Shown: piece by piece, positions 3,005 to 42,506 of the stretch
Layout: the number at the start of each line of letters is the position of its first letter
Numbering within the stretch: position 1 is the stretch's first letter
Origin: Candidatus Poribacteria bacterium
GTDB taxonomy: Bacteria > Poribacteria > WGA-4E > PCPOR2b
DNA length: 64,000 nucleotides
Direction of reading: 5' to 3'
Assembly (NCBI GenBank): GCA_965215015.1
Contig: OZ244042.1
Location: forward strand, 160,001-224,000
Program-made: the position numbers and the translations under genes
The notes under the pieces: generated by a model
What the model saw: only the letters and a program-made list of their open reading frames with translations
The model's database searches: none
What the model was told of the DNA's origin: nothing

Positions 3005-3100
3005 CCAAAAGGTTTACTGTTGTTCCAGCTTCACCGTTCGTAGTAGCGCAATTCATTGCGCGTCTAAAAACCAAACGGTTTACTGTTGTTCCAGCTTCAC
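3005..3100. repeat. GTAG-hairpin (REP-like) 36-bp insert flanked by a 30-bp direct duplication
   Basis: ccaaaaggtttactgttgttccagcttcac (3005-3034) and ccaaacggtttactgttgttccagcttcac (3071-3100) surround GTAGTAGCGCAATTCATTGCGCGT. Confidence 0.9.
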
Positions 3101-3736
3101 ACCGGTAATGTTTTCTAGTGCAGAAAGCTCTTGAACAAAACTGGTCCAACGGTCCGAATCTTTCAGTTTTACATGAAATTTCAGTTCGGCAGTTCCCGAT
3201 TTTGTTGTTCTCTGACCGATGAGTTGACTTGCTGTCAACTGCTCATTAAAAATTGATTCGTGATTCTGCCGATCCTCGGACGCAAGCGGCACCTGGAAGG
3301 TCAGTAGAAATTCTCTATCATTGGATGCAGCCGTATGCCAACGGTGGAGTCCAATAATAACGACGCTTATAAGGAACGTCGCAATTACAGCCACAGGCGG
3401 ATTGCCAGCACCGATTGCCATACCAACAGCCAACGAGAAAAAGACAAAGGCGATGTCTCGCGCATCCTGAACCACGGTGCGAAAGCGGATGATTGACAGG
3501 GCACCCACGAGGCTGAAGGCACGGGCAACACTATCACCAATCACCACCATGACGACAGCAATAAGCATACAAAGAATAATTAGTGCATCGGTCATCGAGT
3601 CTTCCGCTATATTGGCAGTCCACCGATAAACAGTGGCAATGACCAGACCCAGTGCAAATGCGAGTAACAGGTTGAAAACAATTATCCCTAGCGTTGCAAG
3701 GGAGTATGGCGCAAAAATTTCCCGGATTATGTCCAT
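3080..3736 (-). CDS. DUF4956 family membrane protein
   Basis: Signature IGDSVARAFSLVGALSIIRFRT..D.RDIAFVFFSLAVGMAIG. Confidence 0.85.
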   Translation of the reverse strand: MDIIREIFAPYSLATLGIIVFNLLLAFALGLVIATVYRWTANIAEDSMTDALIILCMLIAVVMVVIGDSVARAFSLVGALSIIRFRTVVQDARDIAFVFFSLAVGMAIGAGNPPVAVIATFLISVVIIGLHRWHTAASNDREFLLTFQVPLASEDRQNHESIFNEQLTASQLIGQRTTKSGTAELKFHVKLKDSDRWTSFVQELSALENITGVKLEQQ

Positions 3737-3931
3737 TGGTCGACTGGTTTCCTAACGAATTTCCCTATCTTCTATTCGAGCCGTTTGCGCCCGTTAGATA
3801 GTCCTTTGAGCGTACCGGATTTGATTTATTAGGCAGATAGACTTCACATTAGTTCAAAAAAAATGGGAGAAACCCAAAAAATCTCGGTAAATCTCTATTC
3901 ACACCTATTAGCTGCATTGAATTGCACAAAA

Positions 3932-6900
3932 CTAACGCATTGATAGCTTTGTGTCACCAATCTTCCGGCGCAGTACGACACCCCATTGTCCAACGATCCA
4001 GAGCGTATTCCCTTCTTTCGCACGGACTATCCGGTACAAGTCATTCCCGATATCGGTATGTTCTTGTTCCCATGTGTCTCCACCATCGGCTGAGTAGAGA
4101 ATTGTGCCTTTGCTGCCGACAGCGTAAATTTCGTCCTTAGACAGCGCGGTGACACTGTAGAGGTCCGTCGTGATGCCACTGGATAGCGGTTCCCACTTAA
4201 ATCCGCCGCCGGTGGTTCGGAGAATGATACCGTAACGGCCCACCGCCCAACCTTTACGCTTGGTGATGAATGAGACATCATATAGGTCGTAGCCCGTATC
4301 TGTTTCATGAAATTTCCAGTAACCCCCGCCATTGATGGTGCGTTGAACGATACCGTCATCGCCCACCGCCCAGCCAAGCGGTGCATACTTCATATCGATT
4401 CCGTGAAGATCTGTGCCGGTGGAGGTCCGTTGCGGTGTCCAGATGGGACCGCCATCCTGATTGTGGATAATCTGCCCATCCCCGCCAGCTGCCCAGCCTT
4501 CAGAGAACTGTCTAAAAGCGACATCGTTGATTGTGAAAGGTCTCGGCGGGTCATCTTCGAGGAAGCCAGGACGCATGGGGGTCTGTCCGGCCGACCAATT
4601 TGAACCATCAGTTGTGTAGAGGACTGTGCCGTCACGTTGCATTGCCCAACCCCATTTCGGGTCGAGACTGGGGAAGTGGACACCAATCAATCGCTGACGT
4701 GCTCCACTTTTCAGCGTAGTCCATGTAGCCCCACCATCCTGCGTCTCCAGCAACAAGCCATTATCGCCGGCGATCCAGCCCTGTTGGTCATCGAGAAACA
4801 GCACATCTCGGAAATCATCTAGTTGTTCACCGAGTTGCCGTTCCCATGTCTTTCCACCGTCTGCGGTGTGAAAGATATGCCCTGCGTCCCCAGCCGCCCA
4901 CGCAATCTGGTCGTTGACGAAATAGATGTTGTTAATTAAACGATTCCCCCGTGCTCTGCCACGTCGCAGTCGCTCTTGTTGGGCAGCCCGCTGCTGTCCC
5001 TGTGCCCTGTTAGAAGGTTGAACGTTTTCGCCACCGAGATCGCCTTCTGGTGTGAAACGTCCGGCGCGTTGACGTCTATCGCTCATCCGCGTTTGGAACT
5101 GTTCTGCAAAGTCCTCATCCCATTCTGGGGTGTCGGTGTCCCTGAATTGATCAGCGGCACCATTGTCCGATTCTCCTCCCTCATTGATCCAGAGCGCGAA
5201 CCAATCGATATCCTCTCCGTCTGCGTCTGCAATCCCAGAGTTGACTGAACTTTCATGCTGTGGAACGTTCGTCCCTTCCCACGTTTGACCACCATTGCGT
5301 GTGATGAAGAGGGTGCCATCCCTTCCGAGAGCCCACGCTTCTTTGTGATTTTGGAAGGTTATCCGACCAATTCGTTGAGGGGGCCATCCGCTATCCGAAT
5401 CGGACAGAACGCGTTTCCAAGTTGTGCCTCCATCATCGGTTACGATTGATACACCATTCGTCAACACGACCCATCCTGATTTTGAGTCAGCAAAATGAAC
5501 GGCGATGGCAGGTTGGTTAGTGTTGTCGAGAACTTTCCAGTAGTTCCCCCCATCAGTGGTATGCAGAATGACTCCGCCTTCCCTCATCCCGCCGTTGAGG
5601 CGTTCCCGCAGGACCGCCCAGCCTTCGAGGCTATTGATGAAATGGAGATCGACAATCGGCTGCTCATTCATTCCGGTTTGCTGTCGTTTCCACGTCAACC
5701 CCCCATCGGTGGTGTGGAGCATCTCTGCAGCACCGACCCCTAGCCACCCCTCTTTGGGGTTAATAAACTGCATTGTGTTGACACGCCGGAAATTTTGTAG
5801 AACACCTCTCACTACCTGCCATGTGTTCCCACCATCTTCGGTGCGGAGCAGCATACGACTGCCTGTAATCCAGCCATGCGATTTATCGACGAACATGACC
5901 TGATGCAGATTCGCTTCGACACTGCTATGTTGCGGCAGCCATGTTTCTCCGCCATCGATTGTGTGTGCGATAACACCGCCTCTCCCGACCGTCCAACCGG
6001 TCCGCTTATCAAGGAAGTAGGTATCTGAAAAATCGGTCTGCCATGTGGCGCGCCGGATAATATCCCAATGGTAGGTTACCTCCTCCACTGTTACCTCTTC
6101 TTCAGGGGGTTCCTCTACAATCTTTGCGATAGGGGGCAAGGTTACAGGGAGTTGCTCTGGGTCAATCGAATATCGCATCGCTATCCCGCCGCGCCCCACT
6201 ACCACCATCCCTTCCGGTGAGAGCGAGAATCCCAAGAGATCGTTCTCCGTACCGCTCTCCTGTTTCTCCCATTTTGCGCCACCGTTGGTCGTGGTCAGAA
6301 TCACACCCTTGTCGCCGACGATGATGCCGTGCGAAGTATCCGCGAGGTATACCTTGTTCAGATTCTCCTCAACACCGCTTGGTTGAAACCTCCATGTTTG
6401 ACCCCCATCTTTTGTATGCAGAATCTCACCGAACTGACCGACAATCCAACCGTTGCTACTGTCCGTAAAGTGAACCGCGTACAGTTCGTTGAAGGTTCCA
6501 GAGGTCTGGGACGTCCATGATAACCCACCGTTCGTCGTGTGATAGACAACCCCGGGCCAACCGACCACCCAACCCTCTTTCTCGTTCAGGAAGAAGGCAC
6601 CTTTGAGCGAGTTAAATTCGGTTGGCGTCTGGGGCACCCACGATGCGCCACCATCAGCGGTATGCACGACTGTGCCGAGTTCACCGACTGCCCAACCCTT
6701 CTTCCGCGTCACAAAGTAAACACCGTTAAGCATGTGATCCGCACCGGCGTATTGACGATCCCATGTCCGGCCACCATCGGTGGTGTGGGCAATCATGTTG
6801 CGCTCGCCAATCAACCAACCCTCTTTGTCAGAAATAAAGAAAACGTTGCGGATATTATCCCAGATATCAGTATCAACCTCCTCCCACGTCTCCCCACCGT

Positions 6901-7996
6901 CTTCCGATACCACAATGGCACCGCGTTGTCCGACAGCGATTGCACGGTTCTCCGAGGTGAACTGGATGTTTTCTAGATCGTTTGCTGTGGTGCCGCTCCT
7001 CATCGTCCACGTATTCCCGCCATCTGTCGAGTGCATAATTGTGCCGTGCCAACCGACCGCCCACGCTGCAGTCTGACCCGTGAACTGAACAGCCATCAGG
7101 TTGTTTTCTGTGATACTCTCTAATAGACGCCAGTTATCACCACCATCTTCGGTGAACGTGATAAATCCGATGTCAGCGACTGCCAGACCCCGTTTGTTAT
7201 CGGCGAAGTGGATGCCGTTGAGGGTTTCCTTGACGTGACCGTTGATATTCGGGATACGACTATCTTGCATATCCCACTGTGCACCCCCGTTCTGTGTACG
7301 GAAAATGGAACCGTCCGTGCCCGCCATCCAGCCTTCATTCTCATTCACAAAAACAACGCGCCGGTTGTCGTTCACCAATCGGGTTCGTGCAAATTGGTGT
7401 CGGGTGGTCTGCTCTCGCCATGTCTTCCCGCCATCGTTCGTGCGAAGGATACGCTCATATTCGCCGACGACCCAGCCTCGCTGATCATCGACAAACCAGA
7501 CGCCGTTGAGGGAAAAGTCACTCACATAACTCTGGCGTTCCCACGTCTTTCCGCCGTTCTTTGTGGCAATTACATAGTTATCTTCCCCTACAACCCACCC
7601 CTCGTCAGAGTTAGCGAAGACAACATCTCTGAGCATACCGGACGCGTTGCTGTCCTGGAGATACCAGTATCTGCCCCCATCATCGGTCGCGGCGATGACA
7701 CCGTTGTCACCCACAACCCAACCGTATTTTAGATTCGTAAAATAGACAGCTTTGAGATCCTCTGTCGTGCCGACTTCTTGGCGGTTCCATGTTTTTCCAC
7801 CATTGTTGGTATGGATGATAAACCCTTTTTCCCCAACAATCCAGCCGTATGTGGGGTTGACGAAGTGGAGGTCTGTGAAATGGGTTTCCCAATCGGCTTT
7901 GCGAGTGACCTCCTGTCTACATCCGATCAGTAGCATAGCTAATGCCAAAGTGATTGTTACGCATTGATAGATGCGTTGAAAAATCCGTTTCATCAA
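3932..7996 (-). CDS. Large YCF48/BNR-repeat multi-beta-propeller lipoprotein
   Basis: Lipobox-like LLIGC; many repeats of GW.VG..G.I..T.DGG.TW. Confidence 0.85.
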   Translation of the reverse strand: MMKRIFQRIYQCVTITLALAMLLIGCRQEVTRKADWETHFTDLHFVNPTYGWIVGEKGFIIHTNNGGKTWNRQEVGTTEDLKAVYFTNLKYGWVVGDNGVIAATDDGGRYWYLQDSNASGMLRDVVFANSDEGWVVGEDNYVIATKNGGKTWERQSYVSDFSLNGVWFVDDQRGWVVGEYERILRTNDGGKTWREQTTRHQFARTRLVNDNRRVVFVNENEGWMAGTDGSIFRTQNGGAQWDMQDSRIPNINGHVKETLNGIHFADNKRGLAVADIGFITFTEDGGDNWRLLESITENNLMAVQFTGQTAAWAVGWHGTIMHSTDGGNTWTMRSGTTANDLENIQFTSENRAIAVGQRGAIVVSEDGGETWEEVDTDIWDNIRNVFFISDKEGWLIGERNMIAHTTDGGRTWDRQYAGADHMLNGVYFVTRKKGWAVGELGTVVHTADGGASWVPQTPTEFNSLKGAFFLNEKEGWVVGWPGVVYHTTNGGLSWTSQTSGTFNELYAVHFTDSSNGWIVGQFGEILHTKDGGQTWRFQPSGVEENLNKVYLADTSHGIIVGDKGVILTTTNGGAKWEKQESGTENDLLGFSLSPEGMVVVGRGGIAMRYSIDPEQLPVTLPPIAKIVEEPPEEEVTVEEVTYHWDIIRRATWQTDFSDTYFLDKRTGWTVGRGGVIAHTIDGGETWLPQHSSVEANLHQVMFVDKSHGWITGSRMLLRTEDGGNTWQVVRGVLQNFRRVNTMQFINPKEGWLGVGAAEMLHTTDGGLTWKRQQTGMNEQPIVDLHFINSLEGWAVLRERLNGGMREGGVILHTTDGGNYWKVLDNTNQPAIAVHFADSKSGWVVLTNGVSIVTDDGGTTWKRVLSDSDSGWPPQRIGRITFQNHKEAWALGRDGTLFITRNGGQTWEGTNVPQHESSVNSGIADADGEDIDWFALWINEGGESDNGAADQFRDTDTPEWDEDFAEQFQTRMSDRRQRAGRFTPEGDLGGENVQPSNRAQGQQRAAQQERLRRGRARGNRLINNIYFVNDQIAWAAGDAGHIFHTADGGKTWERQLGEQLDDFRDVLFLDDQQGWIAGDNGLLLETQDGGATWTTLKSGARQRLIGVHFPSLDPKWGWAMQRDGTVLYTTDGSNWSAGQTPMRPGFLEDDPPRPFTINDVAFRQFSEGWAAGGDGQIIHNQDGGPIWTPQRTSTGTDLHGIDMKYAPLGWAVGDDGIVQRTINGGGYWKFHETDTGYDLYDVSFITKRKGWAVGRYGIILRTTGGGFKWEPLSSGITTDLYSVTALSKDEIYAVGSKGTILYSADGGDTWEQEHTDIGNDLYRIVRAKEGNTLWIVGQWGVVLRRKIGDTKLSMR

Positions 7997-8047
7997 TGTT
8001 CTCCTGATGCGTATTTTGAAGAGGTTATACCGCTTTTAAGGTTAGAC

Positions 8048-8500
8048 TCACTCTGCTGACGCTCCCAAGATTTGATACAATTCAAACTGAGGTGCGCCCG
8101 CCTGTGCCTTCATCCCTTCACCATATTCCCTCAAGGCGGCGGGTGTTGCTGTTATGAGTTTGGCAAAGACCTTCTCATCCGTCAGCTCCGCCATCATCAC
8201 GAAGTCAGGTTGACTGGTGTTTGCCGGTGCCCCTTGTCCCGGGAGTTGCATCCGCTTGAGCGCAGTAATCTTCAACCCCTCAATCCCTTTTGCCGCTGAT
8301 AACAACTTCTCCTTCAGAAGTTGTTCAGCGACCTCCGCATCTCCGGTGGGGGTCAGGTGCAATTTGGCGAAAACTAAGATGGTATATTGGCGCGTATCTT
8401 CCTGTTGTGCTTTAGCTATCAATGATATACCTATTCCCAACATACAAATGAGAATAAGCCCAATACATGCGTTTTTGAAATTGATTCGGTTTATCATCAT
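8048..8500 (-). CDS. Secreted hypothetical protein (possible dimeric alpha/beta-barrel fold)
   Basis: Signal peptide ending AKA-QQ; 150-aa ORF with RBS-like GAGG. Confidence 0.6.
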   Translation of the reverse strand: MMINRINFKNACIGLILICMLGIGISLIAKAQQEDTRQYTILVFAKLHLTPTGDAEVAEQLLKEKLLSAAKGIEGLKITALKRMQLPGQGAPANTSQPDFVMMAELTDEKVFAKLITATPAALREYGEGMKAQAGAPQFELYQILGASAE

Positions 8501-8730
8501 TCACCTCATAGCAAGTGGGTTTTGAATCGGGGATTAGTATTCTGCTGATTGTGATTCTGTGGATCAATAACTCCCCTATTTATGTTTAGGAAGGTAAATT
8601 CAGTTTTTGTTCGCAAAAAAATGGACTGAGATGAAAAATCTCAGGCCGCTCACGAGATGTCGCATTTTACCACCATTCTGGAACCTAAGTTGTTTCAATT
8701 TTTCCGACTCAAAGCAGACCAAAATGAGGC

Positions 8731-8767
8731 AAAAAAAAAAGCAGCCAAGCAAATGGCTTGGCTGCTC
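8731..8767 (-). terminator. Rho-independent terminator of the DUF4159 gene
   Basis: GCAGCCAAGC-aaatg-GCTTGGCTGC hairpin with an A10 run on + (U-tract on -). Confidence 0.85.
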
Positions 8768-8807
8768 GATGTGACATAATATGAGGGTCTGTCCAAATCA
8801 GTAGACT

Positions 8808-10516: not shown

Positions 10517-10532
10517 ATTTCCTTGTTAATCC

Positions 10533-10570
10533 TTTGACGTACTCCCACGCCCTAAAGGGTTGGGGTCTTG
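10533..10570 (-). mobile_element. Isolated IS200/IS605-type right-end remnant
   Basis: Reverse complement aagaccccaaccctttagggcgtgggagtacgtcaa resembles the end of the tnpB remnant at about 43039-43072 (gaatccaaaccctgtaggtgtaggagtacgtcaa). Confidence 0.55.
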
Positions 10571-10770
10571 TCAACAAGATTAGATAAATGAACGGTGCTC
10601 ATAAAGGAGTAGGCAACTCCGCGTGCCGTAACCTCAACAATCGTTATTACGGACGGGGTTGTTTATGTGAGGGGTGCTCATACGAATTATCTGAATTGCG
10701 GATGCAGCAGATGCCTCAGATTACACGGATATAGATATGGGGTTGGGAATATTTTGTTTTTTTCCATTCA

Positions 10771-11512
10771 GGTTGGAGGGTTAGCCAAGCCATACGCTAT
10801 AGCGAAATAACCCTGTTCGTAGTAGCGCAATTCATTGCGCGTCTCTTCCTATCCATTGAACAACGTTAAAAAAATTAGCCCAATAAGTTGAACCGATTAA
10901 AATCGACTGCAACGATATGGGGTTGGAGGGTTAGCCAAGTCATACGTTATAGCGAAATAACCCCGTTCGTAGTAGCGCAATTCATTGCGCGTCTCTTCCT
11001 ATCCCTTCAACAACGTTAAATAAATTAACCCAATAAGTCGAACCGATTAAAATCAACTGCAACGATATGGGGTTGGGGGTGTTAGCCAAGCCATACGCTA
11101 TAGCAAGATAACCCTGTTTGTAGTAGCGCAATTCATTGCGCGTCTCTTCCTATCCCTTCAACAGCGTTAAATAAATTAACCCAATAAGTCGAAACGATTA
11201 AAATCGACTGCAACGATATGGGGTTGGAGGGTTAGCCAAGCCATACGCTATAGCGAAATAACCCTGTTTGTAGTAGCGCAATTCATTGCGCGTCTCTTCC
11301 TATCCCTTCAACAGCGTTAAATAAATTAACCCAATAAATCAAAACGATTAAAATCAACTGCAACGATATGGGGTTGGAGGGTTAGCCAAGCCATACGCTA
11401 TAGCGAGATAACCCCGTTCGTAGTAGCGCAATTCATTGCGCGTCTCTTCCTATCCCTTCAACAGCGTTAAATAAATTAACCCAATAAATCAAAACGATTA
11501 AAATCGACTGCA
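10771..11512. repeat. Tandem array of five ~150-bp units, each with one GTAG hairpin plus a copy of the last 12 codons of the adjacent gene
   Basis: Units start at 10771, 10921, 11071, 11222 and 11372; the final unit ends inside CDS 11476-12492. Confidence 0.95.
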
Positions 11513-14652: not shown

Positions 14653-15380
14653 AGAGTTACGCACTTGAGTGTGTCGTAACGCCATTCAACCCACATTACC
14701 ATAGACCATAAATCGCCCAATAGCAATAGACATACGCTGTATGCCGTACCCCCCTCCCTTCCTCCCGCTTGTGTTCTTACTGCTCATAGTAGCGCAATTC
14801 ATCGCGCGTAAGCTCACCCATCCCTTCCCCCTGCTTGCGGGGGGACAGAGGGGGGTTCTTACTTCTCCTCCGCTTGCGGGGGGGTGTAGATGATTGGCAA
14901 TGTAATAGTATTGCCATGGACTTACTTCCCCCTGCTTGCGGGGGGATAGAGGGGGGTTCTTACTTCTCCTCCGCTTGCGGGATTGTAGATGATTGGCAAT
15001 GTAATAGTATTACCATGGACTTACTTCCCCCTGCTTGCGGGGGGATAGAGGGGGGTTCTTACTTCCCTCCACCTGCTTGCGGGGGGTGTAGATGATTGGT
15101 AATGTAATAGCATTGCCATGGACTTACTTCCCCCTGCTTGCAGGGGGATAGAGGGGGTTCTTACTTCCCCTCCGCTTGCGGGGGGTTGTAGATGATTGGC
15201 AATGTAATAGTATTACCATGGACTTACTTCCCCCTGCTTGCGGGGGGATAGAGGGGGGTTCTTACTTCCCTCTCCCTGCTTGCCGGGGGTTAGGGAGGTG
15301 GCGATTCATCCCCGAAATCCACCATGAACATGGCACCCCCTTTTCTGGTGTTGGCTTTGAACCCTCAACTGCATAAGTCT
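14653..15380. mobile_element. MITE-like segment bounded by short inverted repeats, enclosing repeat arrays
   Basis: AGAGTTACGCA (14653-14663) and TGCATAAGTCT (15370-15380) are imperfect inverted repeats, flanked by ttatttgtta and taatttgtta (10 bp, one mismatch). Confidence 0.5.
14825..15300. repeat. Tandem array of ~100-bp units (4 full plus 1 partial) with CCCCCTGCTTGCGGGGG hairpins and a TGGCAAT-N8-ATTGCCA palindrome
   Basis: Unit starts at 14825, 14926, 15025, 15128 and 15228. Confidence 0.9.
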
Positions 15381-15676
15381 TAATTTGTTATGAAATATGT
15401 TTAGTATATCATGTTAAGCCTAAAAACTCAATGACGAGTGCCTCAACCTGACTACATTGAGGTCATCGTGGATATGTTCGGTAGGTTTCGATCCGTATCA
15501 TACTGTTTTTTCTCGTAATTCCTCCGATTTTCGTGTAAAATTCGCGTGCGATTTGAGGGTTCACAAGTGAGGTATAGGCAACAAGCGACTAGGAAGACAG
15601 CCTCTCCAAGATAAGCAACGATCGGACACCTATTTGGAACCACCTCATCAGACCAAGAGACGGTAAGGAGAGAAAA

Positions 15677-22455: not shown

Positions 22456-23032
22456 GGATATACAATAACCCGTTTGTAGTAGGGCAATTCATTGCCCGTA
22501 GGGGTTCTTGTAATAGGGACATACAATTAAGATGAGCGAGGGTAACTCAGCGACAGGCAGTTAGACCAACACCCGTTTGTAGTAGCGCAATTTATTGCCC
22601 GTAGGGGGTCTTGTAATTCGGCAACATGTGGTTATCCCAAAACACCAATATAGTGGAAACCCAAAACACACACCCGTTTGTAGTAGGGCAATTCATTGCC
22701 CGTAGGGGGTCTTGTAATAGGGATATACAATTAAGATGAGCGAGGGTAACTCAGCGACATGCAGTTATACCAACACCCGTTTGTAGTAGCGCAATTCATT
22801 GCGCGTCGAGGTTCTTGTAATTCGGCAACATGTGGTTATCCCAAAACACCAATATGGCGGAAACCCAAAACACAGGTTGAACAAGGCAGGCACACCTAAG
22901 GGATATACAATTAAGATGAGCGAGGGTAACTCAGCGACAGGCAGTTAGACCAACACCCGTTTGTAGTAGCGCAATTCATTGCCCGTAGGGGTTATTGTAA
23001 TTTGGCAACATGTGGTTATCCCAACACACCAA
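22409..23032. repeat. BIME-like mosaic array with five GTAG hairpins and copies of the upstream gene's 3' end
   Basis: GTAG hairpins at about 22476, 22579, 22680, 22783 and 22963; tatggcggaaacccaaaacacaggttgaa repeated at 22409 and 22853. Confidence 0.9.
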
Positions 23033-25923: not shown

Positions 25924-26020
25924 ATCAAACACCTATGATTGGAAAGAGGGGAGGCAGTTCGTAGTAGCGCAATTCATTGCGCGTAACACCATCAAACACC
26001 AACGATTGGAAAGAGGGGAG
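25924..26020. repeat. GTAG-hairpin 37-bp insert flanked by a 30-bp direct duplication
   Basis: atcaaacacctatgattggaaagaggggag (25924-25953) and atcaaacaccaacgattggaaagaggggag (25991-26020). Confidence 0.9.
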
Positions 26021-31725: not shown

Positions 31726-31857
31726 CACCTTTCCTCGAATCAGTCCTCCTAGTTAAATGCTAGTTAAATGAGGCTACTTACAAAGTAGTAGGCACACTGC
31801 GCGCCCTAAACCACACAACCGTTATGATATATGGCTAGGCTAACACCCAACTCTTGC

Positions 31858-31943
31858 GCCTCCCCCTGCTTGCGGGGGGACCGAGGGGGGTTGAGTTGAC
31901 CAATGGCTCTCGCCCACTCGTAGTAGCGCAATTTATTGCGCGT
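31858..31943. repeat. CCCCCTGCTTGCGGGGG hairpin plus a GTAG hairpin between convergent genes
   Basis: cctccccctgcttgcggggggaccgagggggg and gtagtagcgcaatttattgcgcgt. Confidence 0.8.
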
Positions 31944-32045
31944 CGAATGCCACCAGCCTCTAATTTTTTGTAGATCTATACCAGCCTTTTACGTCTCCGT
32001 ATTGGTATTCTTGAATATCATTTGTTAAGTTGATAGCGTGTGTAA

Positions 32046-33184: not shown

Positions 33185-34354
33185 GTGAAAATCACTAAAA
33201 TTGAGACGCTTCGGGCGAGCCGATTCATGTACGTCAAAGTGGAGACGGATGAAGATATCACAGGGATCGGCGAGCTCCATCCAGCTAGCGGTACCGGCGG
33301 CACGCCATTTGTGCCAATCGCAGGGGTCAAATATTGCGCCGAATACCTTGTCGGCAAAAACCCTCTGCATATCGAACGCCACTGGCAGCATACATTTCGT
33401 CGCTGTTTATTCCGCGGCGGCGCAGACGTGATGGCCGCCATCGGTACAATCGATATCGCCTTGTGGGACATCAAAGGCAAAGTGCTTGGCGCACCGGTTT
33501 ATGAACTGATCGGCGGGCCCACACGGGAGAAGGTTCGTCTTTATACACATCTAGGCGGCACCACGTCCGAAGAATTGGCAGAGCAGGCATCCGCCCGTGT
33601 GGAAGAAGGGTTCACCGCGGTTCGGTTGTATCCGTTCGGTGATTTCGGTGTCTCCGATTTCGAGGAAGGACACGGTCTGGAAAACATGAGTTATACCGCT
33701 ATGGTTCGCAATGCAGAACAGCGGGTCGCAGCAGTCAGGGACGCCGTGGGGCCCGACGTAGACGTGATGATTGATGTCGTCAACCGACTCACCCCAGCGG
33801 AAGCCATCGCTGTGGGACGGGCACTTGAGCCGTACGACCTATACTTTTTCGAGGATCCGATTGAGCCTGAAAATATGGAGGCATGGGAGCACGTCGCAGC
33901 TAGCGTTCCAATGCCACTGGCGATGGGGGAACGACTCTATACAATTTACCAGTTCCGAGATCTGCTGAACCATAACGGCGCTGCATTCGTCCGTCCTGAC
34001 TTGTCGCTCGCCGGGGGCATCACCAATGTCAAGAAAATCGCAACGCTTGCAGAAGCAAGCTACATCGGTGTCGTACCGCACAATCCGTTAAGTTGTGTCC
34101 TTACTGCCGCGTGTGTGCAAATTGATGCAGCCATTCACAATCTTGCGGTGCAAGAGTATCCGTTGGGTGAAGATAAAGCCCCGAAACGCGATCTTGTCAA
34201 AGAACCGATTAAGCGGGAAGGCGGCTATTTAATCCTTCCAGACACGCCGGGAATCGGGATTGAGCTCAACGAAGAAGCATTTAAGCATTATCCTCCTGAG
34301 CCGTATGTGCGCCCACCCCTCATAACCCCGGATGGGGGACTGAAGGAGTATTAA
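33185..34354 (+). CDS. Mandelate racemase/galactonate dehydratase-like enolase superfamily protein
   Basis: IDIALWDIKGK, FFEDP, GERLYT, RPDLSLAGGIT, PHNP. Confidence 0.9.
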   Translation: MKITKIETLRASRFMYVKVETDEDITGIGELHPASGTGGTPFVPIAGVKYCAEYLVGKNPLHIERHWQHTFRRCLFRGGADVMAAIGTIDIALWDIKGKVLGAPVYELIGGPTREKVRLYTHLGGTTSEELAEQASARVEEGFTAVRLYPFGDFGVSDFEEGHGLENMSYTAMVRNAEQRVAAVRDAVGPDVDVMIDVVNRLTPAEAIAVGRALEPYDLYFFEDPIEPENMEAWEHVAASVPMPLAMGERLYTIYQFRDLLNHNGAAFVRPDLSLAGGITNVKKIATLAEASYIGVVPHNPLSCVLTAACVQIDAAIHNLAVQEYPLGEDKAPKRDLVKEPIKREGGYLILPDTPGIGIELNEEAFKHYPPEPYVRPPLITPDGGLKEY

Positions 34355-34442
34355 TGCTCTGGTATTAGAAACCAGGGTTTGTAGTAGCGCAATTTATTGC
34401 GCGTGGTTTACCAGTATTAATGCCCTGGTATTGGAAACCAGG
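34347..34442. repeat. GTAG-hairpin 36-bp insert flanked by a 30-bp direct duplication containing both convergent stop codons
   Basis: agtattaatgctctggtattagaaaccagg (34347-34376) and agtattaatgccctggtattggaaaccagg (34413-34442). Confidence 0.9.
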
Positions 34443-35646
34443 CCCCACCGGTTTTTCTCGCTAGTGCCTTTTGCTCACGCTCGGCTTTGAGTGGATCATC
34501 GGATTCAGTTTCATCAACGCCCCCAATTATATCCATCGTTATCTCTGCTTCCCAACACTGTCGTAGCACTTCGCTAAGTGTATAAGGACCTGTGCACGGT
34601 GCATCGGTAATGAGGATAAAACGACGTCGTGCCTCCGGACGGAATTTTATCCTCGATATCGATTTGGCAATCGCCTCATAAGCCCGTTCAGTCCCACCAC
34701 ACTTGACGTTTTCTAGGAGGCGTTCATACCTCTGGTAATCCTTTGTTGGTTGGTGAAAGTGCTGTGCCAAATACTTAAACGGCACCATTGCCATCGTAAA
34801 ATCCAACCCTTCTGCTCGGAAGATTTCTACCATATCAATGAGATGCCTGCCCACCGCGCGGATATTATCTTCCATACTGCCACTGGTATCCAACAAAAAG
34901 ACAATATCTACAGTCGGTGAATCTTTCCCGCTCGCAATGCCGCTGGCGATTGTCTGAAGCAGCGATCCAATCTGTGCATCACGATCAAGCACCGGTGCTT
35001 CAATACCATCAGTTTGTGATTCTTGTCTTTGCGAAAGATTGTGTTTGGCTTCGCTGGACGTTGATCGAGGGATTGCGGCCGCGGTTTCTAGCAATTCGCC
35101 AACTGATTCGTACAAACGCTGACTATCTTCGGAGGTTTCTGCAAACAGGGTATCTGATGTGCGTAGTAAGTGTGCAGTTGTACTTAGCGGTTTAGCCTCC
35201 AACCGAACCTGTGGATTCACTACCTCTAAACCCTTTGAAGACAGTAATGGAGTGGAAGACGCATTATTTGCGTCAAGTTGGGGGGGGAGGTTAGCATGAA
35301 AGATTGGCTTTTTCATATCTACAGGATGAAGGCGTTGGGAATGGAGCTCGACCTCGATCAGTTCCGCAACAATCGGCTCCGGGGGCGGTGGTTGGTACCA
35401 TCGCGGCAAACTGACGCTAACCACAAGAACTACTGTTAAGTGCACTAGCAAGGAGATAACAAACGAGAAGCGTGTGCGCCGCCTGGCTCGGGTTCGATTA
35501 TACATCGGAGACCATCGATAGTTGTCAGGCGCGGGAGAGGAACCGTGAGTCTTAGAACGTTGAAAGTCAGGTAGGGCACTTTTTCTGTAAAATCTGTAAA
35601 ACTTGAATCCTGATGTGCGATGCTTAAACGTGGTTAGCCAATTCAT
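34417..35646 (-). CDS. Membrane-anchored vWA domain protein
   Basis: SLLVHL anchor; DIVFLLDTSGSM (MIDAS), ILITDA, LARKTGG; true start may be near MYNRT. Confidence 0.85.
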   Translation of the reverse strand: MNWLTTFKHRTSGFKFYRFYRKSALPDFQRSKTHGSSPAPDNYRWSPMYNRTRARRRTRFSFVISLLVHLTVVLVVSVSLPRWYQPPPPEPIVAELIEVELHSQRLHPVDMKKPIFHANLPPQLDANNASSTPLLSSKGLEVVNPQVRLEAKPLSTTAHLLRTSDTLFAETSEDSQRLYESVGELLETAAAIPRSTSSEAKHNLSQRQESQTDGIEAPVLDRDAQIGSLLQTIASGIASGKDSPTVDIVFLLDTSGSMEDNIRAVGRHLIDMVEIFRAEGLDFTMAMVPFKYLAQHFHQPTKDYQRYERLLENVKCGGTERAYEAIAKSISRIKFRPEARRRFILITDAPCTGPYTLSEVLRQCWEAEITMDIIGGVDETESDDPLKAEREQKALARKTGGAWFPIPGH

Positions 35647-35845
35647 TAGATTTCCCCATTCGCCGATTTGCTCACTGCGATTTTATCACCAAACGTTCTC
35701 TATGTCAAAAAAATCCTGCTTGAGATCAAGCCAATCAAAGGATGGAGAATAGATATTTTGCTTGCAGGTTCAAAGACAGGTGTGTTACAATAAATTTGAT
35801 TTTCACGTATTCGGGGATTTAGGCTTCATGATTGGAATGGGAACC

Positions 35846-36358: not shown

Positions 36359-36385
36359 CTTGATGAACCCTCCGATCAACCGAAT

Positions 36386-37165: not shown

Positions 37166-37166
37166 T

Positions 37167-37517
37167 ATGGCGCATAAGGTTCATCCGAATAGACTGACAC
37201 AACGTTGGGAATTTCAACGAGGCTATAAAAAAGGGGAAAAGTACTGGAATCGCCACCTTGTTATATATGTTGTCAAACAGTCTTTAGGTTCCACCCGTTT
37301 GGGTATCACTGTCAGTAAAAAGGTTGGCAACAGTGTTAAACGGAATCGCCTCAAACGCCTAATCCGGGAATCGTTTAGATTATCAAAGCAGCACACACGT
37401 CTGGGATATGATATCGTCGCTGTTGGCAGATCTGCGGCGGTCGGTGTGAAATGCCAACAAGTTCAAGCGTCATTCTTACAACTTCTACAACGAGCCAAGG
37501 TATACAAGTCTGAGTGA
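37167..37517 (+). CDS. rnpA: Ribonuclease P protein component
   Basis: RLGITVSKKVGNSVKRNRLKRLIRESFR. Confidence 0.95.
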   Translation: MAHKVHPNRLTQRWEFQRGYKKGEKYWNRHLVIYVVKQSLGSTRLGITVSKKVGNSVKRNRLKRLIRESFRLSKQHTRLGYDIVAVGRSAAVGVKCQQVQASFLQLLQRAKVYKSE

Positions 37518-37592
37518 TTCGGCACGCATGTAAACCTGTTAAATTATATAAGCCCAGCAGGGCTGGGACTTTTGAGCCGTTTTGTGGATGCC

Positions 37593-37802
37593 ATGAAAAT
37601 CGTCCTCATTTATGCCATACACTGCTATCGCAAACTGATTTCACCGCTCTTTCCACCAACCTGCCGGTTTTATCCAACGTGCTCTCAATATGCCCTTGAA
37701 GCAATCACAAAGTATGGAGTTTTGAAAGGTGGGTGGCTTGCGCTCAAACGACTATCCAAGTGCCACCCCTATCACCCCGGCGGTTATCATCCCCTTAAAT
37801 AA
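37593..37802 (+). CDS. yidD: Membrane protein insertion efficiency factor
   Basis: [21 protein letters not shown]...R..KCHP...GG. Confidence 0.95.
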
Positions 37803-37852
37803 AAGGGAATAAGCCGTTACTGGCTTCTAATAAAACGCAAAGAAAAGAACTT

Positions 37853-37995
37853 ATGCCTCCCCCCGCTTGCGGGGGACTGAGGGGTGGGCCGTAAGTATTC
37901 CCTTGGGACCGCAACTCGTAGTAGCGCAATTCATGGCGCGTATCTTTACGCCGGGCCTTGCCCCCCTCCCTCTGCTTGCGGGGGATAGAGGGGTT
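37853..37995. repeat. Composite repeat: two CCCCGCTTGCGGGGG hairpins around one GTAG hairpin, between yidD and yidC
   Basis: Copies at about 37856, 37918 and 37961. Confidence 0.8.
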
Positions 37996-38097
37996 AAAGG
38001 GGAGCGACTTTGCGTTCAGTTCAGAGAAAAGCCAATAACTACTCATTGCGAAATAAAATTCTAGCGTTGGGGAAATTGTCATGAGGAGATTCTTTAA

Positions 38098-39999
38098 ATG
38101 GAGAAACGTTATATCTTAGCCCTTGTGCTCATGGTTGCTGTGATGTTTGGTTGGAGTTGGTTTTATGGTCGAAAACTGCCCAAACCTACGCAAACAACCG
38201 AACAAGCGACTGAGCAAACAAGGGAGGCTTCACCCATCTCACCAGATCCATCATCATCTGATAGTTCTTTATCCGGTAGAACAACAGTTGATACAGGTCA
38301 ATCAGTGCAAGTAGAGGCACTGCCCCGCCCCCGGCAGCCGGTAAAGGAGGGTAAAACGGTTCATGTCGAGACCGGAAAATACGATATTATGTTTTCAGTT
38401 GGACGATTCGCTTACGCCCACAAATGGGCACTTAAAGAATACCCAGATAGATCCGGTATGAGCGAACCGTTGTTTAACCTAATCCCAGAAACAGCCCAAA
38501 ACTGTCTGTCAATCCACTTTCTTAATCAAGACTTGACAACCGATGCTATGGACACGTTTTGGGAGACGGACAAAATGGAGCTCGTTCTCACAGATCAAAA
38601 CCCGTACGATACCCTTACATTCAGCAAGCAGGTTGGAGAAAACCTCAAGGTTCTCAAGAAATTTACGTTTTACTACCATAGCTACTACGCTGATCTTGAA
38701 TTGACGTTCCAAAATTTGTCGAATCAACCGTTAATTTCTCTTGATATGATGAGTGATAACCGTAACGGGTATAAACTCCGTTGGGGCCCTGGGATAAATG
38801 CAGATCTGCTTACACATGAACGCAAAAATGATAAACGAGGACGCCATAATCCGAAAAGCGAAGGTGCCAGAGCCTTGAGCAGTGGTGCTAGCAAACCGGT
38901 TAAAAAATTTGATGACTCTCAAAGTACGAATATAGCATTATGGGCGGGTGTGAATAATAAATATTTTGCTGCACTCATGATTCCAGATGGAGTGCTCAAC
39001 GCCACATACGAACTCGAAACTCTCTTAGACAACGGAACAACAGCACCAGCGGCTATTACTGCCCCAGCGGAAGCCGCAAGCCTCATTATTCCCGGATTTT
39101 CATTGGATTCCCACAAAAGCCGGACAGACCAATTCCGTATCTATGTCGGTCCAAAGGAGTACAAAGTTCTAAAAACAATCGTGCCACCGGGAACTCAGGA
39201 GGAAGACCTCCAACTTGCTGATATTATCGACTTCGGTTTCTTTTGGTATATTGCTTGGGTCATGCTTTGGCTACTGAATTTCTTTTATGGCATTATCAAC
39301 AATTATGGGGTTGCCATCATTCTGCTGACTTTATTAGTAAAGGTGGTTTCATACCCCCTTACCCGTAAAGGTTATAAGTCGATGCAAGCGATGCAGAAAC
39401 TGCAACCCCTGCTTACGGAGATCCGTGAAAAGCATCGAGATGATCCTCAGAAACTCAATAAAGCAACGATGCAATTATACAAAGAACATGGTGTTAATCC
39501 ATTCGGTGGTTGCATTCCTTGGATTCCACAGATCCCGGTCTTTATCGCGCTATTTGCACTCCTTGGTAATGCCGTTGAACTACGAGGTGAGCCCTTCTTT
39601 TTATGGATAGATGATCTGGCCTCGCCCGATGTACTATTCACCCTCCCTTTTACAATTCCGTTCCTTGGAGATGCCGTTCGATTTCTACCAATTGTCAACG
39701 GGTTAACGACTTGGTTACAACAGAAGACATCAGGCGGTATGACCCCTGTGACCGACAATATGCAAGCGAAGATTATGCAATTTATGCCCTTGCTTTTTGT
39801 CTTTATCCTTTATAACTTTGCATCGGGATTGGCACTTTATTGGCTCTGCAACAATATTTTTACCATCGGACAACAGTATTTACCCAAATTGTGGCAATCT
39901 GATGAAGCGGAAGAAGAGACCCCTGTTAATACCCCATCCACAAAAAAACAACCTCAATCCAAGAGACGACAGTCCCCAACCGCGAGCCGTAAGACATGA
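38098..39999 (+). CDS. yidC: Membrane protein insertase YidC
   Basis: IDFG, NYGVAIILLT, MQKLQP, LYKEHGVNPFGGC, WIDDLASPD, GLALYW. Confidence 0.95.
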   Translation: MEKRYILALVLMVAVMFGWSWFYGRKLPKPTQTTEQATEQTREASPISPDPSSSDSSLSGRTTVDTGQSVQVEALPRPRQPVKEGKTVHVETGKYDIMFSVGRFAYAHKWALKEYPDRSGMSEPLFNLIPETAQNCLSIHFLNQDLTTDAMDTFWETDKMELVLTDQNPYDTLTFSKQVGENLKVLKKFTFYYHSYYADLELTFQNLSNQPLISLDMMSDNRNGYKLRWGPGINADLLTHERKNDKRGRHNPKSEGARALSSGASKPVKKFDDSQSTNIALWAGVNNKYFAALMIPDGVLNATYELETLLDNGTTAPAAITAPAEAASLIIPGFSLDSHKSRTDQFRIYVGPKEYKVLKTIVPPGTQEEDLQLADIIDFGFFWYIAWVMLWLLNFFYGIINNYGVAIILLTLLVKVVSYPLTRKGYKSMQAMQKLQPLLTEIREKHRDDPQKLNKATMQLYKEHGVNPFGGCIPWIPQIPVFIALFALLGNAVELRGEPFFLWIDDLASPDVLFTLPFTIPFLGDAVRFLPIVNGLTTWLQQKTSGGMTPVTDNMQAKIMQFMPLLFVFILYNFASGLALYWLCNNIFTIGQQYLPKLWQSDEAEEETPVNTPSTKKQPQSKRRQSPTASRKT

Positions 40000-40082
40000 G
40001 ATGCGGAACGCGAACCATAGATTCCAATAATACTATTCAATAATTATAGATATTATACGGTTATTCAGGAGGATACTGAATC

Positions 40083-40733
40083 GTGCACCAATATGTTGAA
40101 GTTGAAGAAGATACAACAGAGGAAGCCTTGGAGGCAGCCCTTAAAAAACTTAGTGCGAGTCGTGAACAAGTGAGTGTAAGGGTTATACATGAACCCACGA
40201 AAGGTATCCTTGGCTTAGGGGCAAAACTGGCTAAAATCCGTGTGACCCTAAAAGAGGATATTTCTCCGACGCCAGAGACGGTACTTCATGAAATTCTAAG
40301 TCGTATGGGGCTTGAGGTGCAGATTGAATCTCAAATCATCAATGGGAGTATACATCTTACAGTGAATTCCGATAATCCCGGTATACTAATCGGTAAACAT
40401 GGGCAGACACTGAATGCCGTCGAATATTTGCTGAATTGTATATTAAATAGGTCCTCTCTCGTAAAAAAGAAAGTGTTTGTTGACGCGGAAGGATACCGGG
40501 AACGGCGCAAGCAGATGCTAATTGATCTGGCTTATCGTGCTGCTGCAAAGGTTAAACAGACTCATCAAGAGATTGTCCTCGACCCGATGCCCCCTCGAGA
40601 CCGCCGGATTATTCATGTTACCTTACAATCAGATGAGCATATTCGCACGTATAGCCGGGGTGAGGGAATGATGCGGCGTGTTGCTGTCACCACACGCGAA
40701 AGATATGAAACAAGCTCAAAGCAGTATGATTGA
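40083..40733 (+). CDS. jag: Jag/EloR RNA-binding protein (KH and R3H domains)
   Basis: KGILGLG, GILIGKHGQTLNA, PMPPRDRRIIH, TYSRGEG. Confidence 0.92.
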   Translation: MHQYVEVEEDTTEEALEAALKKLSASREQVSVRVIHEPTKGILGLGAKLAKIRVTLKEDISPTPETVLHEILSRMGLEVQIESQIINGSIHLTVNSDNPGILIGKHGQTLNAVEYLLNCILNRSSLVKKKVFVDAEGYRERRKQMLIDLAYRAAAKVKQTHQEIVLDPMPPRDRRIIHVTLQSDEHIRTYSRGEGMMRRVAVTTRERYETSSKQYD

Positions 40734-42111
40734 ATCGGATACAATTGCAGCGATTGCAACACCACGGGGAGAAGGGGGGGTCGGTATTGTCCGTGTGAGC
40801 GGCAGCCTCGCTATTCCCATTGCCTCCCAGATTTTTCGTTCGCCATGCCACATTTCCCCAGCAGAGCTGCCGAGCCACACGCTGAATTATGGACATGTTG
40901 TCCAATCATCATCGGGAAAGGTTATTGATGAAGTAATGCTCGGTATCATGCGGGCCCCAAAATCGTATACAGCGGAGGATGTCGTTGAATTTAACTGTCA
41001 CGGTGGTATTGTACCCCTCAGAGGTGTGCTTGAGCTCACATTGAAAGCCGGAGCGCGTCTCGCAACGCCGGGCGAATTTACCAAACGCGCTTTTCTCAAC
41101 GGGCGGATAGACTTAGCGCAAGCAGAAGCAGTCGTAGATCTCATTCGTTCAAAAACTGACCTCACCCGTCAGATTGCAATAGACCAGTTGTCTGGAAACC
41201 TATCCCAAACGATTAACACACTCAACAATCGGCTTGCGAATCTGCTAGCGGAAGTCGAGGCGTCTATCGATTTTCCTGAAGAAGAACTCGATTTCATGGA
41301 TTTAGCGGTGATGAGGCAAACCGCCCAAGACATCCTTGATGACTTGGACCGGTTGACTGCAACTGCATCGGACGGTAAACTCCTGCGCGAAGGTCTCAAC
41401 ATTGCAATACTCGGACGACCAAACGTCGGGAAATCAAGTTTGCTAAACACGTTGTTGCAGGAAGATCGAGCGATAGTCACGGAAATACCGGGGACGACAC
41501 GGGATACAATCGAAGCACCACTAGACCTCGGTGGGATTCCGATCAAGTTGATAGACACCGCCGGGATACATCAAACAACAGATATTGTTGAACAGCAAGG
41601 AGTCGCGCGGAGTAAAGCCTATCTTGACCGCGCTGATTTGCTTTTAATCATGTTTGATTCATCTCGCTCATTAACTAGAGAAGATCGAGAACTGCTCCAC
41701 GCGGCGAAAGTCCGCAAATCAATTCTCATTCTGAACAAAGTTGACCTCCCTATTGTAACAACTCCCGCAGACCTATACACCCATTCACCTCAGAAGCCGG
41801 TGGTTCAGACCTCTCTCCTCAATAGCAAAGGAGTCGAAGAGTTGAAATCCGCGGTTCATCAAGAGATTCTTGAAGGAGATGCAATATGGGGTGATTCTCC
41901 AATTGTTACAAACGTCCGTCACCACGATGCGTTGCGTCGAGGAACGCTCGCGCTGGGTCATGCAATAGAGAGCTTTACCCAACAGATGCCTCCAGATCTT
42001 GTGGCAGTAGATCTGCGCAGCAGTTTGGATTGTCTCGGCGAAATTGTTGGCAAAACAACGACAGAAGATATTTTGGGCAGAATTTTCTCCCAATTCTGTG
42101 TAGGTAAGTGA
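40726..42111 (+). CDS. mnmE: tRNA modification GTPase MnmE
   Basis: DTIAAIATP, GRPNVGKSSL, PGTTRD, DTAG, NKVD, FSQFCVGK. Confidence 0.97.
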   Translation: MIESDTIAAIATPRGEGGVGIVRVSGSLAIPIASQIFRSPCHISPAELPSHTLNYGHVVQSSSGKVIDEVMLGIMRAPKSYTAEDVVEFNCHGGIVPLRGVLELTLKAGARLATPGEFTKRAFLNGRIDLAQAEAVVDLIRSKTDLTRQIAIDQLSGNLSQTINTLNNRLANLLAEVEASIDFPEEELDFMDLAVMRQTAQDILDDLDRLTATASDGKLLREGLNIAILGRPNVGKSSLLNTLLQEDRAIVTEIPGTTRDTIEAPLDLGGIPIKLIDTAGIHQTTDIVEQQGVARSKAYLDRADLLLIMFDSSRSLTREDRELLHAAKVRKSILILNKVDLPIVTTPADLYTHSPQKPVVQTSLLNSKGVEELKSAVHQEILEGDAIWGDSPIVTNVRHHDALRRGTLALGHAIESFTQQMPPDLVAVDLRSSLDCLGEIVGKTTTEDILGRIFSQFCVGK

Positions 42112-42408
42112 AATAAAGCGATGGTACTAACCATACTGCAAGTCCTCATGATAGGCATCGAACTACACTCTCTGAAAATAACCTAAGTGTTACCTACCCT
42201 ATAACAGCGTTGTTACTTGTTGTTCTCCTGCCAGCCTGAAACGTAATGCGTAAGCCGTTCATTATGGGCACGGGTTCATTGGTGGATTGATTCATTCGGT
42301 CAATTGTAGTAGGTACGCTTCCCCCCGATAAATCGGGATTGAGAAACGTGCCATCAGTTGCATAGGAGTTACGGCATACGGAGTATGCCGTAACCTGTAC
42401 ACATACCC

Positions 42409-42506
42409 GTAGGTCGAGCATCTTGCCCAGTCTGTAATCTTTAGTTCATAGTAGCGCAATTCATTGCGCGTGAAAGTAGATCGGGTCTCTTGCCCAGCCT
42501 ATAACC
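42409..42506. repeat. GTAG-hairpin 36-bp insert flanked by a diverged 31-bp duplication
   Basis: gtaggtcgagcatcttgcccagtctgtaatc (42409-42439) and gtagatcgggtctcttgcccagcctataacc (42476-42506), 7 mismatches. Confidence 0.7.

Follow-up and report, generated by a model that had tools for sequence, protein, structure and literature searches.

The window analysed here, a stretch of 64,000 nucleotides from the genome of a Candidatus Poribacteria bacterium (contig OZ244042.1, positions 160,001 to 224,000), carries numerous copies of a small hairpin of the repetitive extragenic palindrome (REP) type, and some of these copies are found within a fragment of 36-37 nt that stands between two direct copies of about 30 nt of local sequence. 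We refer to this arrangement, consisting of a target copy, an insert and a second target copy, as a D-I-D unit. The genome to which the window belongs (G000), which is like that of a sponge symbiont, comprises 5.94 Mb in one contig at 49% G+C; coordinates prefixed C1 refer to the whole contig, and related genomes are designated by G numbers of their own. We find that the units are insertions of fixed geometry, that insertions of the same geometry occur elsewhere in the genome with and without a REP, and that the lengths involved are those of a CRISPR array of the same genome, and we propose that the CRISPR integrase of this organism, acting outside its array, probably made them.

Three units are well preserved (Table 1). 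At 3005 the duplicated 30-mer contains the 3' end of a DUF4956 gene (3080-3736, minus strand), the unit at 25924 lies between the genes for histidinol dehydrogenase and a DUF1028 protein, and at 34347 the single 30-mer of related genomes contains the stop codons of two convergent genes, each of which retains its own end after the duplication (33185-34354 on the plus strand, 34417-35646 on the minus strand). The unit at 42409 is more diverged and is interpreted as an older insertion; no empty site is demonstrable for it, and the intergenic stretch 42171-43073 cannot be aligned to relatives. A fifth pair of repeats, at 14751, is a weak candidate: its surroundings (14655-15666) are likewise unalignable, and it resembles an abundant small element of the form CCCC..GCTTGC..GGGG, so that it may be a chance similarity or a second element. 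The best 30-mer matches at lag 66 or 67 for these five REP sites are 29, 28, 28, 23 (unit 42409, at lag 67) and 21 of 30, and at least 20 of 30 is reached at 0.28% of 5000 random window positions. All five pairs had been described, with the same coordinates and periods, in an earlier interpretation of the bare sequence (hereafter the sequence-only reading), which was also right that two REP copies, placed at 31920 and 37918 (here 31921 and 37919), lack such a duplication. A CRISPR array would have at least three identical repeats, unique spacers and a leader, whereas each unit has one locus-specific 30-mer in two copies around one insert. Nor do the units look like insertion sequences (IS) or miniature inverted-repeat transposable elements (MITEs), the insert having only 36-37 nt, an internal hairpin, no terminal inverted repeats (TIRs) at its ends and a duplication of 30 bp, where such elements usually make one of under 15 bp.

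Table 1. D-I-D units, inserts and other REP-bearing features of the window (window coordinates).
Feature	Position	Strand	Details
D-I-D unit	3005..3100	+	copies 3005-3034/3071-3100, period 66, 1/30 mismatch
Insert of unit 3005	3035-3070		36 nt, REP at 3036-3063
D-I-D unit	25924..26020	+	copies 25924-25953/25991-26020, period 67, 2/30 mismatches
Insert of unit 25924	25954-25990		37 nt, with REP
D-I-D unit	34347..34442	+	copies 34347-34376/34413-34442, period 66, 2/30 mismatches
Insert of unit 34347	34377-34412		36 nt, with REP
D-I-D unit, diverged	42409..42506	+	31-nt copies 42409-42439/42476-42506, period 67, 7/31 mismatches
Insert of unit 42409	42440-42475		36 nt, with REP
D-I-D candidate, weak	14751..14839	+	23-nt C-rich copies 14751-14773/14817-14839, period 66, 4/23 mismatches; core 14787-14809
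REP without target duplication	31916..31943	+	11/30 at lag 66/67
REP without 66-nt duplication	37914..37941	+	13/30 at lag 66/67
Tandem array, five REPs with flanking DNA	10815..11443	+	period 150-151 nt, not the 66-nt geometry
Tandem array, five REPs	22472..22986	+	periods 101-103 and 180 nt, two alternating unit types, not the 66-nt geometry

The hairpin itself is well defined. Its 23-nt core, with up to three mismatches, matches 17 times in the window, always on the plus strand (17/17) and never in 100 dinucleotide-preserving shuffles of the window, and 224 times in the genome (142 on the plus and 82 on the minus strand). A per-position tally of all 224 copies gives a conserved unit of 28 nt, GTTYG followed by the core, with an unpaired tag of the GTAG type and a 7-bp stem; the stem pair at positions 6/19 is C-G in 150 copies, T-A in 53 and other in 21, a covariation by compensatory change. 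Being a short palindrome with a GTAG-type tag and a high copy number, the hairpin is a GTAG-tagged REP in the sense of PMC3733652, and a number of its copies are paired with a related REP as inverted doublets. Its candidacy as a CRISPR repeat was rejected, the three true arrays of the genome having unrelated repeats. The sequence-only reading had described a 24-bp core that shifts its register within the insert, with 4-8 variable nucleotides on each side; the shifting register stands, whereas the conserved unit is the longer one of 28 nt, which leaves 8-9 variable nucleotides per REP insert outside it.

Related genomes show what these sites looked like without the insert. When the segment 2700-3400 of the window is searched in 31 genomes (the present one and 30 relatives), it gives two matches that overlap by exactly 30 nt in the target in G001, G002, G003, G009, G012 and G016, and in alignment 10 of the 11 relatives' loci have one 30-mer and no insert. 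The eleventh (G015, locus L012, C1:3728555-3731870) has an insertion there that is unrelated and measures about 1.4 kb, and the site may be a recurrent insertion target. Across the syntenic 80 kb of five relatives the 3005 site is empty in all five (66 nt shorter in four and 67 nt shorter in G008); the 34347 site is empty in three, exactly 66 nt shorter in G001 and G004 (110 vs 176 nt; 123 nt in G008), its flanks being missing in the other two; and the 25924 site is empty in four (G003, G004, G008, G018), where a less well aligned intergenic stretch is about 58-63 nt shorter. At all three of these clean sites the insert is absent from every relative in which both flanks were found. Because relatives carry such empty sites, with one 30-mer and no insert just as the sequence-only reading would have them, the units are true insertions with a target duplication of about 30 bp. 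An insert beside a single 30-mer, the expected form of an I-D precursor, was found in no relative at the four sites with clean empty alleles.

These alleles bear directly on the idea that the units arose during replication, by nick-primed local re-replication, template switching at hairpins or slipped-strand duplication, and are simply decayed or partial 66-nt tandem repeats. True tandem arrays of REPs do exist, some with periods of 63-68 nt (C1:4818378, 4951347 and 4956265) and many with other periods, the strand coherence and clustering of REP copies described below suggest cis-acting events, and the reiteration of GTAG REP clusters together with flanking DNA is described in the accessible part of PMC3733652. 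The empty sites, however, hold neither the insert nor a second copy, so the 36-37 nt were new to the site and not a duplicated neighbour. Slippage moreover offers no reason for a fixed division into 30 and 36/37 nt at unrelated sequences, and for one insert elsewhere in the genome the donor lies on the opposite strand at a distance of 3 Mb (see below). A replicative origin of the units is accordingly quite improbable in our view.

The geometry is not confined to the window. The genome has 89 isolated REP copies, with no other copy within 500 bp; a direct repeat in the flanks accompanies about 15 of them at lag 66 or 67 and a few at 73, 79, 89, 102-112 or 169, and most are without one. One REP, at C1:3528746, has a 30-nt flank duplication at lag 79 around an insert of 49 nt, and hence the same duplication length with longer cargo. 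A strict scan that ignored REPs and sought isolated two-copy direct repeats outside the three CRISPR arrays, with no third copy allowed, found 24 at lag 66 and 5 at lag 67 (29 in total) against at most 7 at each other lag from 50 to 94, and this sharp peak bears out the fixed insertion geometry that the sequence-only reading had deduced from a handful of sites. Two of the 24 lag-66 matches were removed as coding 22-residue leucine-rich repeats (LRRs), and a leader-like TTTTCGGG beside one lag-66 match was dropped as coding LRR sequence as well. Paralogous LRR genes at C1:54100-54900, 1926250-1927060 and 5069150-5069960 have a 66-nt period that mimics the lag-66 signal, and genes with 22-residue LRRs need to be masked in any lag survey.

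Once LRRs were removed and paralogous copies and REP pairs collapsed, the strict scan left 24 independent events within lags 64-68 (one at 64, one at 65, 17 at 66 and 5 at 67), of which 13 have a REP in the insert and 11 do not; the REP-flank analysis adds five weaker REP cases beyond the 24. Since 11 of 24 independent events are REP-free, the 66/67-nt geometry is not specific to REPs, and the notion of a REP-specific insertion system is not supported. One REP-free event (C1:276938) combines a duplication of 29/30 bp with an insert of 36/37 nt and has empty sites, with a target overlap of 30 nt in G004 and 35 nt in G001, while another (C1:1630523) consists of two identical 30-mers around a unique 36-mer. 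For five events (C1:1630523, 2448274, 4530849, 5308331 and 5863146) no clean empty allele was found in relatives, the loci lying in larger lineage-specific insertions or repeats.

For one event the source of the insert can be named. The 37-nt insert of the event at C1:2448274 (C1:2448304-2448340) agrees at 36 of 37 positions with the opposite strand of C1:5447487-5447523, a locus 3 Mb distant, and the similarity ends at the borders of the insert, the flanks being unrelated. The donor stretch (38 nt) is conserved at 97% identity in the five relatives listed (G009, G010, G011, G012 and G017), where the acceptor context is absent; with the donor conserved and the acceptor context not, it follows that the 37-mer is a copy of sequence at a conserved locus and that its insertion produced a 30-bp duplication. 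In sequence it resembles a sigma-70 promoter (TTGACT, 17 nt, TATAAT). No donor was found for the other 10 REP-free inserts. As for the REP-bearing inserts, the check for a donor proposed in the sequence-only reading gave a divided answer, the variable flanks often matching those of other REP-subfamily members over 7-11 nt while no unique donor is nameable.

The age of the insertions can be bracketed with population data, namely contigs from four public runs of two studies, contigs being unable to reveal rare alleles. These contigs break at REPs and enter units 25924 and 34347 from both sides. In a strain diverged by 1-2% (runs X1 and X2) they start or end within unit 25924, so the insert must be present there too, and no form without the 66 nt is reported among the contigs of the four runs. 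Insertions shared with that strain are older than the split from it, and the events are younger than the species-level split from relatives whose genes are only about 85% identical; the 0-7 mismatches between duplicated copies agree with this range. The same contigs argue against treating the units as an assembly artefact or a chance similarity. Such a suspicion might arise from a genome that looks like a metagenome-assembled single contig, from relatives that are metagenome-assembled genomes (MAGs) and from the breaking of short-read contigs at REPs; set against it are the independent runs of two studies, including the diverged strain, whose contigs enter units from both sides, the absence of core matches in shuffled sequence and the single sharp peak of the lag spectrum, and we consider it hardly credible.

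The dimensions of the events recur in the genome's own CRISPR apparatus. There are three Cas1 genes and three CRISPR arrays, and array A (C1:1171658-1187330) consists of 236 repeats, all of 30 nt (236/236), with spacers of 34-39 nt, of which 121 of 234 have 36 nt and 83 of 234 have 37 nt, giving a period of 66 or 67. The length of the duplications (30 bp) is thus that of the repeat and the length of the inserts (36-37 nt) that of the spacer, an exact answer to the comparison with CRISPR lengths that the sequence-only reading had recommended, and the distribution of event lags (17 at 66, 5 at 67, 2 others) does not differ significantly from that of the array (chi-square about 3.5, 2 df). The other two arrays have repeats of about 37 nt and periods of 72-78, and no comparable class of events exists at those lags. 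The region upstream of array A contains csm genes of type III-A and also a full type I-B set, which directly precedes the array and is made up of cas8b1, cas7, cas5, cas3, cas4, a Cas1b of the Haloarcula type and cas2. The Cas1b matches TIGR03641 (cas1_HMARI) with 458 bits against a cut-off of 304 in a 336-aa open frame without stops, and cas2 (50.5 against 24.5) and cas4 (91.4 against 65) are likewise full-length open frames. As the sequence-only reading had observed, the window itself holds no candidate enzyme; this cas4-cas1b-cas2 adaptation module lies about 1 Mb from it, at 1.17 Mb.

REPs are also found in the cas locus. Three lie in intergenic gaps of the type III-A/I-B genes (C1:1161156, 1163105 and 1169873), and one of these, in the 139 nt that separate cas4 from cas1, is a REP doublet. 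In the 13 relatives' loci checked, the 150-nt cas4-cas1 gap holds no core-like REP; the gaps contain other hairpin elements or a terminator-like hairpin, and in L196 this REP lies about 200 nt upstream of cas1.

In CRISPR adaptation, Cas1-Cas2 carries out two strand transfers, one at each border of the first repeat, that join a prespacer to the array, and this repeat is duplicated on repair. We suggest that the units arose in the same manner, through full-site integration of spacers at off-target positions by this genome's type I-B Cas1b-Cas2 together with Cas4, an explanation to which we give a moderate preference. A prespacer of 36-37 bp would have both of its 3' ends joined by the integrase to a chromosomal site, one on each strand and 30 bp apart, and repair of the gaps would duplicate the 30 bp as it does a CRISPR array's first repeat. 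Any captured 36-37-mer could serve as cargo, which about half of the time would be a fragment that holds one whole 28-nt GTAG REP hairpin and derives, along with a few adjoining bases, from another REP locus; such capture would explain the shifting register of the REP within the insert. REPs may be favoured because they supply free DNA ends or hairpin fragments that resist nucleases, or because insertions that bear them are selectively retained. The sequence-only reading had named Cas1-like off-target capture as one form of an undescribed integrase route. The capture is in keeping with the lengths of array A, whereas the reaction is not undescribed, being in print in the accessible part of PMC6698737.

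The target sites bear some resemblance to array A, whose repeat has AACCA at positions 11-15 and GTGGA at 18-22 and whose leader ends in TCGGG. The duplicated 30-mers match the two mid-repeat motifs at a mean of 4.18 of 10 positions, where random 30-mers reach 3.12 (n=17, resampling p=0.0009), and the targets match the last 10 leader nucleotides plus the repeat at a mean of 13.3 of 40 against 11.6 for random sequence (z=2.7, n=15). GGG abuts the duplication at about 15 of 29 sites (LRRs removed), the random rate being 7% per orientation.

Several observations weigh against integration by Cas1b-Cas2 as the explanation. The target-motif signals are modest and suggestive only, because the orientation was chosen post hoc and G-rich small repeats lie beside many sites, and the orientation of the REP relative to the GGG side is mixed (5 vs 6). 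Inserts with a REP contain it whole or short by 2-4 nt, in any register, and no half REPs occur among the REP-free inserts; random capture near REPs predicts mostly partial REPs, and so the bias toward whole REPs is not predicted. Copies of the REP are clustered, concentrated in few regions and strand-coherent in blocks (31 of 31 are on the minus strand at 3.75-4.0 Mb), which a freely diffusing integrase would not predict; GC skew, tried as a means of relating REP strand to replication direction, was too noisy and weak for defining replichores. About 70 of the 89 isolated REPs have no 66/67 duplication and many REP arrays have other periods (54, 79, 98-130, 150), so that another process must also spread or amplify REPs. 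Related genomes with nearly the same enzyme show no events either: G015 (Cas1 95% identical, 108 array-A repeats) has none at lag 66/67 in 1.2 Mb, where the present genome has 5-7 per 1.2 Mb, and a flank repeat at lag 66/67 accompanies none of the 19 REP copies sampled in G008 (Cas1 96% identical, 42 repeats).

As a control, 1.2 Mb of G017, which has no array-A repeat and no Cas1 match with the present query, gave no unique-target event at lag 66/67 and one lag-67 pair of REP-like hairpins. Since the CRISPR-less G017 and the system-bearing G015 are both without events, the comparison neither supports nor refutes the link to Cas1. A peak at lags 50-51 in G015 and G017 was rejected as evidence of target duplication, being due to a repeated composite element with internal direct repeats. 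Dozens of copies of this element, of about 72 nt, lie in G017 (C2, 1.1-2.3 Mb) and G015 (C1, 0.2-1.4 Mb), and in each of them a 21-25-nt hairpin (AGCCCCAGCGGGGCGACATGT type) is present twice in direct orientation at a distance of 50-51 nt; the present genome has almost no isolated direct repeats at lags 50-51.

The cargo and distribution of the REPs could instead point to a dedicated REP-mobilising enzyme, a divergent relative of the HUH-type REP-associated tyrosine transposases (RAYTs) or some other integrase, that makes a staggered cut of 30 bp and inserts a fragment of about 36 nt centred on a REP, the agreement with CRISPR geometry then being coincidental. Whole REPs are over-represented as cargo (13 of 24 events), their copies are clustered and strand-coherent as just described, the 28-mer is identical across species whose genes are only about 85% identical, suggesting active spread or homogenisation, and D-I-D events are missing from the sampled parts of relatives that have the same Cas1b. 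Yet 11 of the 24 events are REP-free, including one copied 37-mer and another event with empty sites, and both lengths as well as the ranking of 66 over 67 match array A. The association of GTAG-tagged REPs with RAYTs, invoked by the sequence-only reading, finds no support here. The present genome has two PF01797 (Y1 transposase) matches, both in broken frames and neither (0/2) with a REP within 1.5 kb; relatives do have full-length Y1 genes, and none of 6 Y1 loci in G001, G004, G008, G015 and G017 has a REP within 1.5 kb, making none of 8 examined loci in all. HUH transposition leaves no target duplication; the units have one, and most other REP copies do not. We know of no enzyme besides Cas1-Cas2 that makes duplications of about 30 bp, which we also count against a dedicated REP enzyme, and on balance we think such an enzyme unlikely.

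A further proposal goes beyond integration as such, namely that Cas1b-Cas2 with Cas4 preferentially captures whole REP hairpins and disperses them, REPs being in this sense selfish spacers; we put it forward tentatively, as an idea that could well prove wrong. If it is true, each event is a repeat-spacer-repeat seed able to grow into a new array, and REPs and CRISPRs are mechanistically linked. No paper linking REPs to Cas1-mediated integration was found in the limited collection of literature searched. Within array A itself REPs are absent, none of the 234 spacers sharing a 12-mer with the REP; spacers with REPs may be tolerated only where no CRISPR RNA (crRNA) is made, which would fit this absence. 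A match in the genome outside array A exists for only one of the 234 spacers (C1:1173751), and it falls within another CRISPR array, 30 of 32 nt agreeing with a stretch of array C (3454872-3454903); the two systems may have sampled the same invader. With 236 repeats against at most 108 elsewhere, array A is the largest among 20 genus genomes searched, and its adaptation module may be unusually active.

Integration outside the array is in itself a known reaction, and what is unusual here is its scale and the frequency of REP hairpins as cargo. To our knowledge, most of what is known of spacer integration at off-target sites comes from overexpression experiments, from studies in vitro and from a handful of putative cases in nature. 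The present genome offers some two dozen fixed natural events, several with empty sites and one with an identifiable donor, and would be a natural record of the action of a type I-B integrase on its own chromosome. Such an integrase could reshape intergenic regions and gene ends, as at 34347, where the insertion separates convergent genes that formerly shared a stop region. If the REP bias reflects a preference in capture, it would provide a testable route for the spread of REPs without a REP-flanked RAYT and a link to the birth of CRISPR-like units. The signature can be screened for across genomes as a peak, outside arrays, at the lag that equals the sum of repeat and spacer lengths.

The remaining REPs of the window stand in other contexts. 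A gene of about 640 nt that is kept in G001, G004 and G008 is deleted here (window 31760-32020), and at the edge of its remnant about 38 nt are replaced by the REP at 31916-31943. The REP at 37914-37941 is nested within small hairpin repeats that span about 255 nt (37805-38050) and are lacking in the same three genomes; this stretch consists of two CCCC..GCTTGCGGGG elements around the REP, and the best flank repeat there, at lag 109, is the CCCC..GCTTGCGGGG element. This second family of small repeats is abundant beside REPs genome-wide. Of the two tandem arrays, the surroundings of the first (10526-11475) are unalignable to relatives and those of the second (22466-22999) to most relatives. 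The syntenic 80-kb regions of the five relatives contain 0, 0, 0, 0 and 1 REP cores, against 17 in the window.

Several known systems invite comparison. Casposons are kilobase-sized self-synthesising elements with TIRs and target duplications of about 14-15 bp; the units share with them a target duplication and, on the explanation preferred here, Cas1-type chemistry, and differ in having an insert of 36-37 nt without TIRs and a duplication of 30 bp. In heterocyst-forming cyanobacteria, small dispersed repeats (SDRs) of 21-27 nt that can form hairpins were reportedly seen as insertions between related genomes (Elhai et al., 2008), and the likeness lies in very small hairpin-capable repeats that appear as insertions. 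Identity with SDRs was rejected, HIP1 not being enriched (85 copies against 91 expected) and the phylum being Poribacteria, and only a distant analogy is left. The hairpins resemble GTAG REPs and REPINs (the doublet form of REPs), as portrayed in the accessible text of PMC3733652 and PMC3116915, in their tag and compensatory stem, their hundreds of copies, their inverted doublets and their clusters with flanking DNA. They are unlike REP/RAYT systems in that no REP-flanked Y1/RAYT gene was found and in the 30-bp duplications at the copies in question; the accessible text of PMC3733652 makes no mention of duplication, direct repeat, target site or empty site.

The closest parallels are with Cas1-Cas2 itself. 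Nivala, Shipman and Church are said to have reported in 2018 off-target integration in E. coli in vivo, along with a small number of putative cases in nature. For the type I-B system of Haloarcula hispanica, according to the accessible part of PMC4872114, the 30-bp duplication is set by AACCC (positions 11-15) and GTGGG (18-22); array A belongs with the same Cas1 subfamily, has the same repeat length and carries its own mid-repeat motifs, AACCA and GTGGA, at the same positions. The target in H. hispanica is the leader-proximal repeat and the motifs are essential there, whereas the targets here are unrelated chromosomal 30-mers with a weak statistical resemblance. The Cas1-Cas2 of Pyrococcus furiosus, which works with 30-bp repeats and 37-bp spacers, makes paired integrations in vitro, 30-31 bp apart, at repeat-like non-CRISPR sites (PMC6698737, in its accessible part, which cites Nivala et al. 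2018 for in vivo off-target events). The units have the same character, with a spacer-length fragment at a non-CRISPR site, a duplication of repeat length (30 bp) and targets that may weakly resemble leader and repeat. They differ from the published off-target events in that they are known from genome comparison and are confined, as far as relatives with the same system were sampled, to one lineage, and in that there are some two dozen of them, fixed in nature, about half of which carry a single family of hairpins that is always carried whole.

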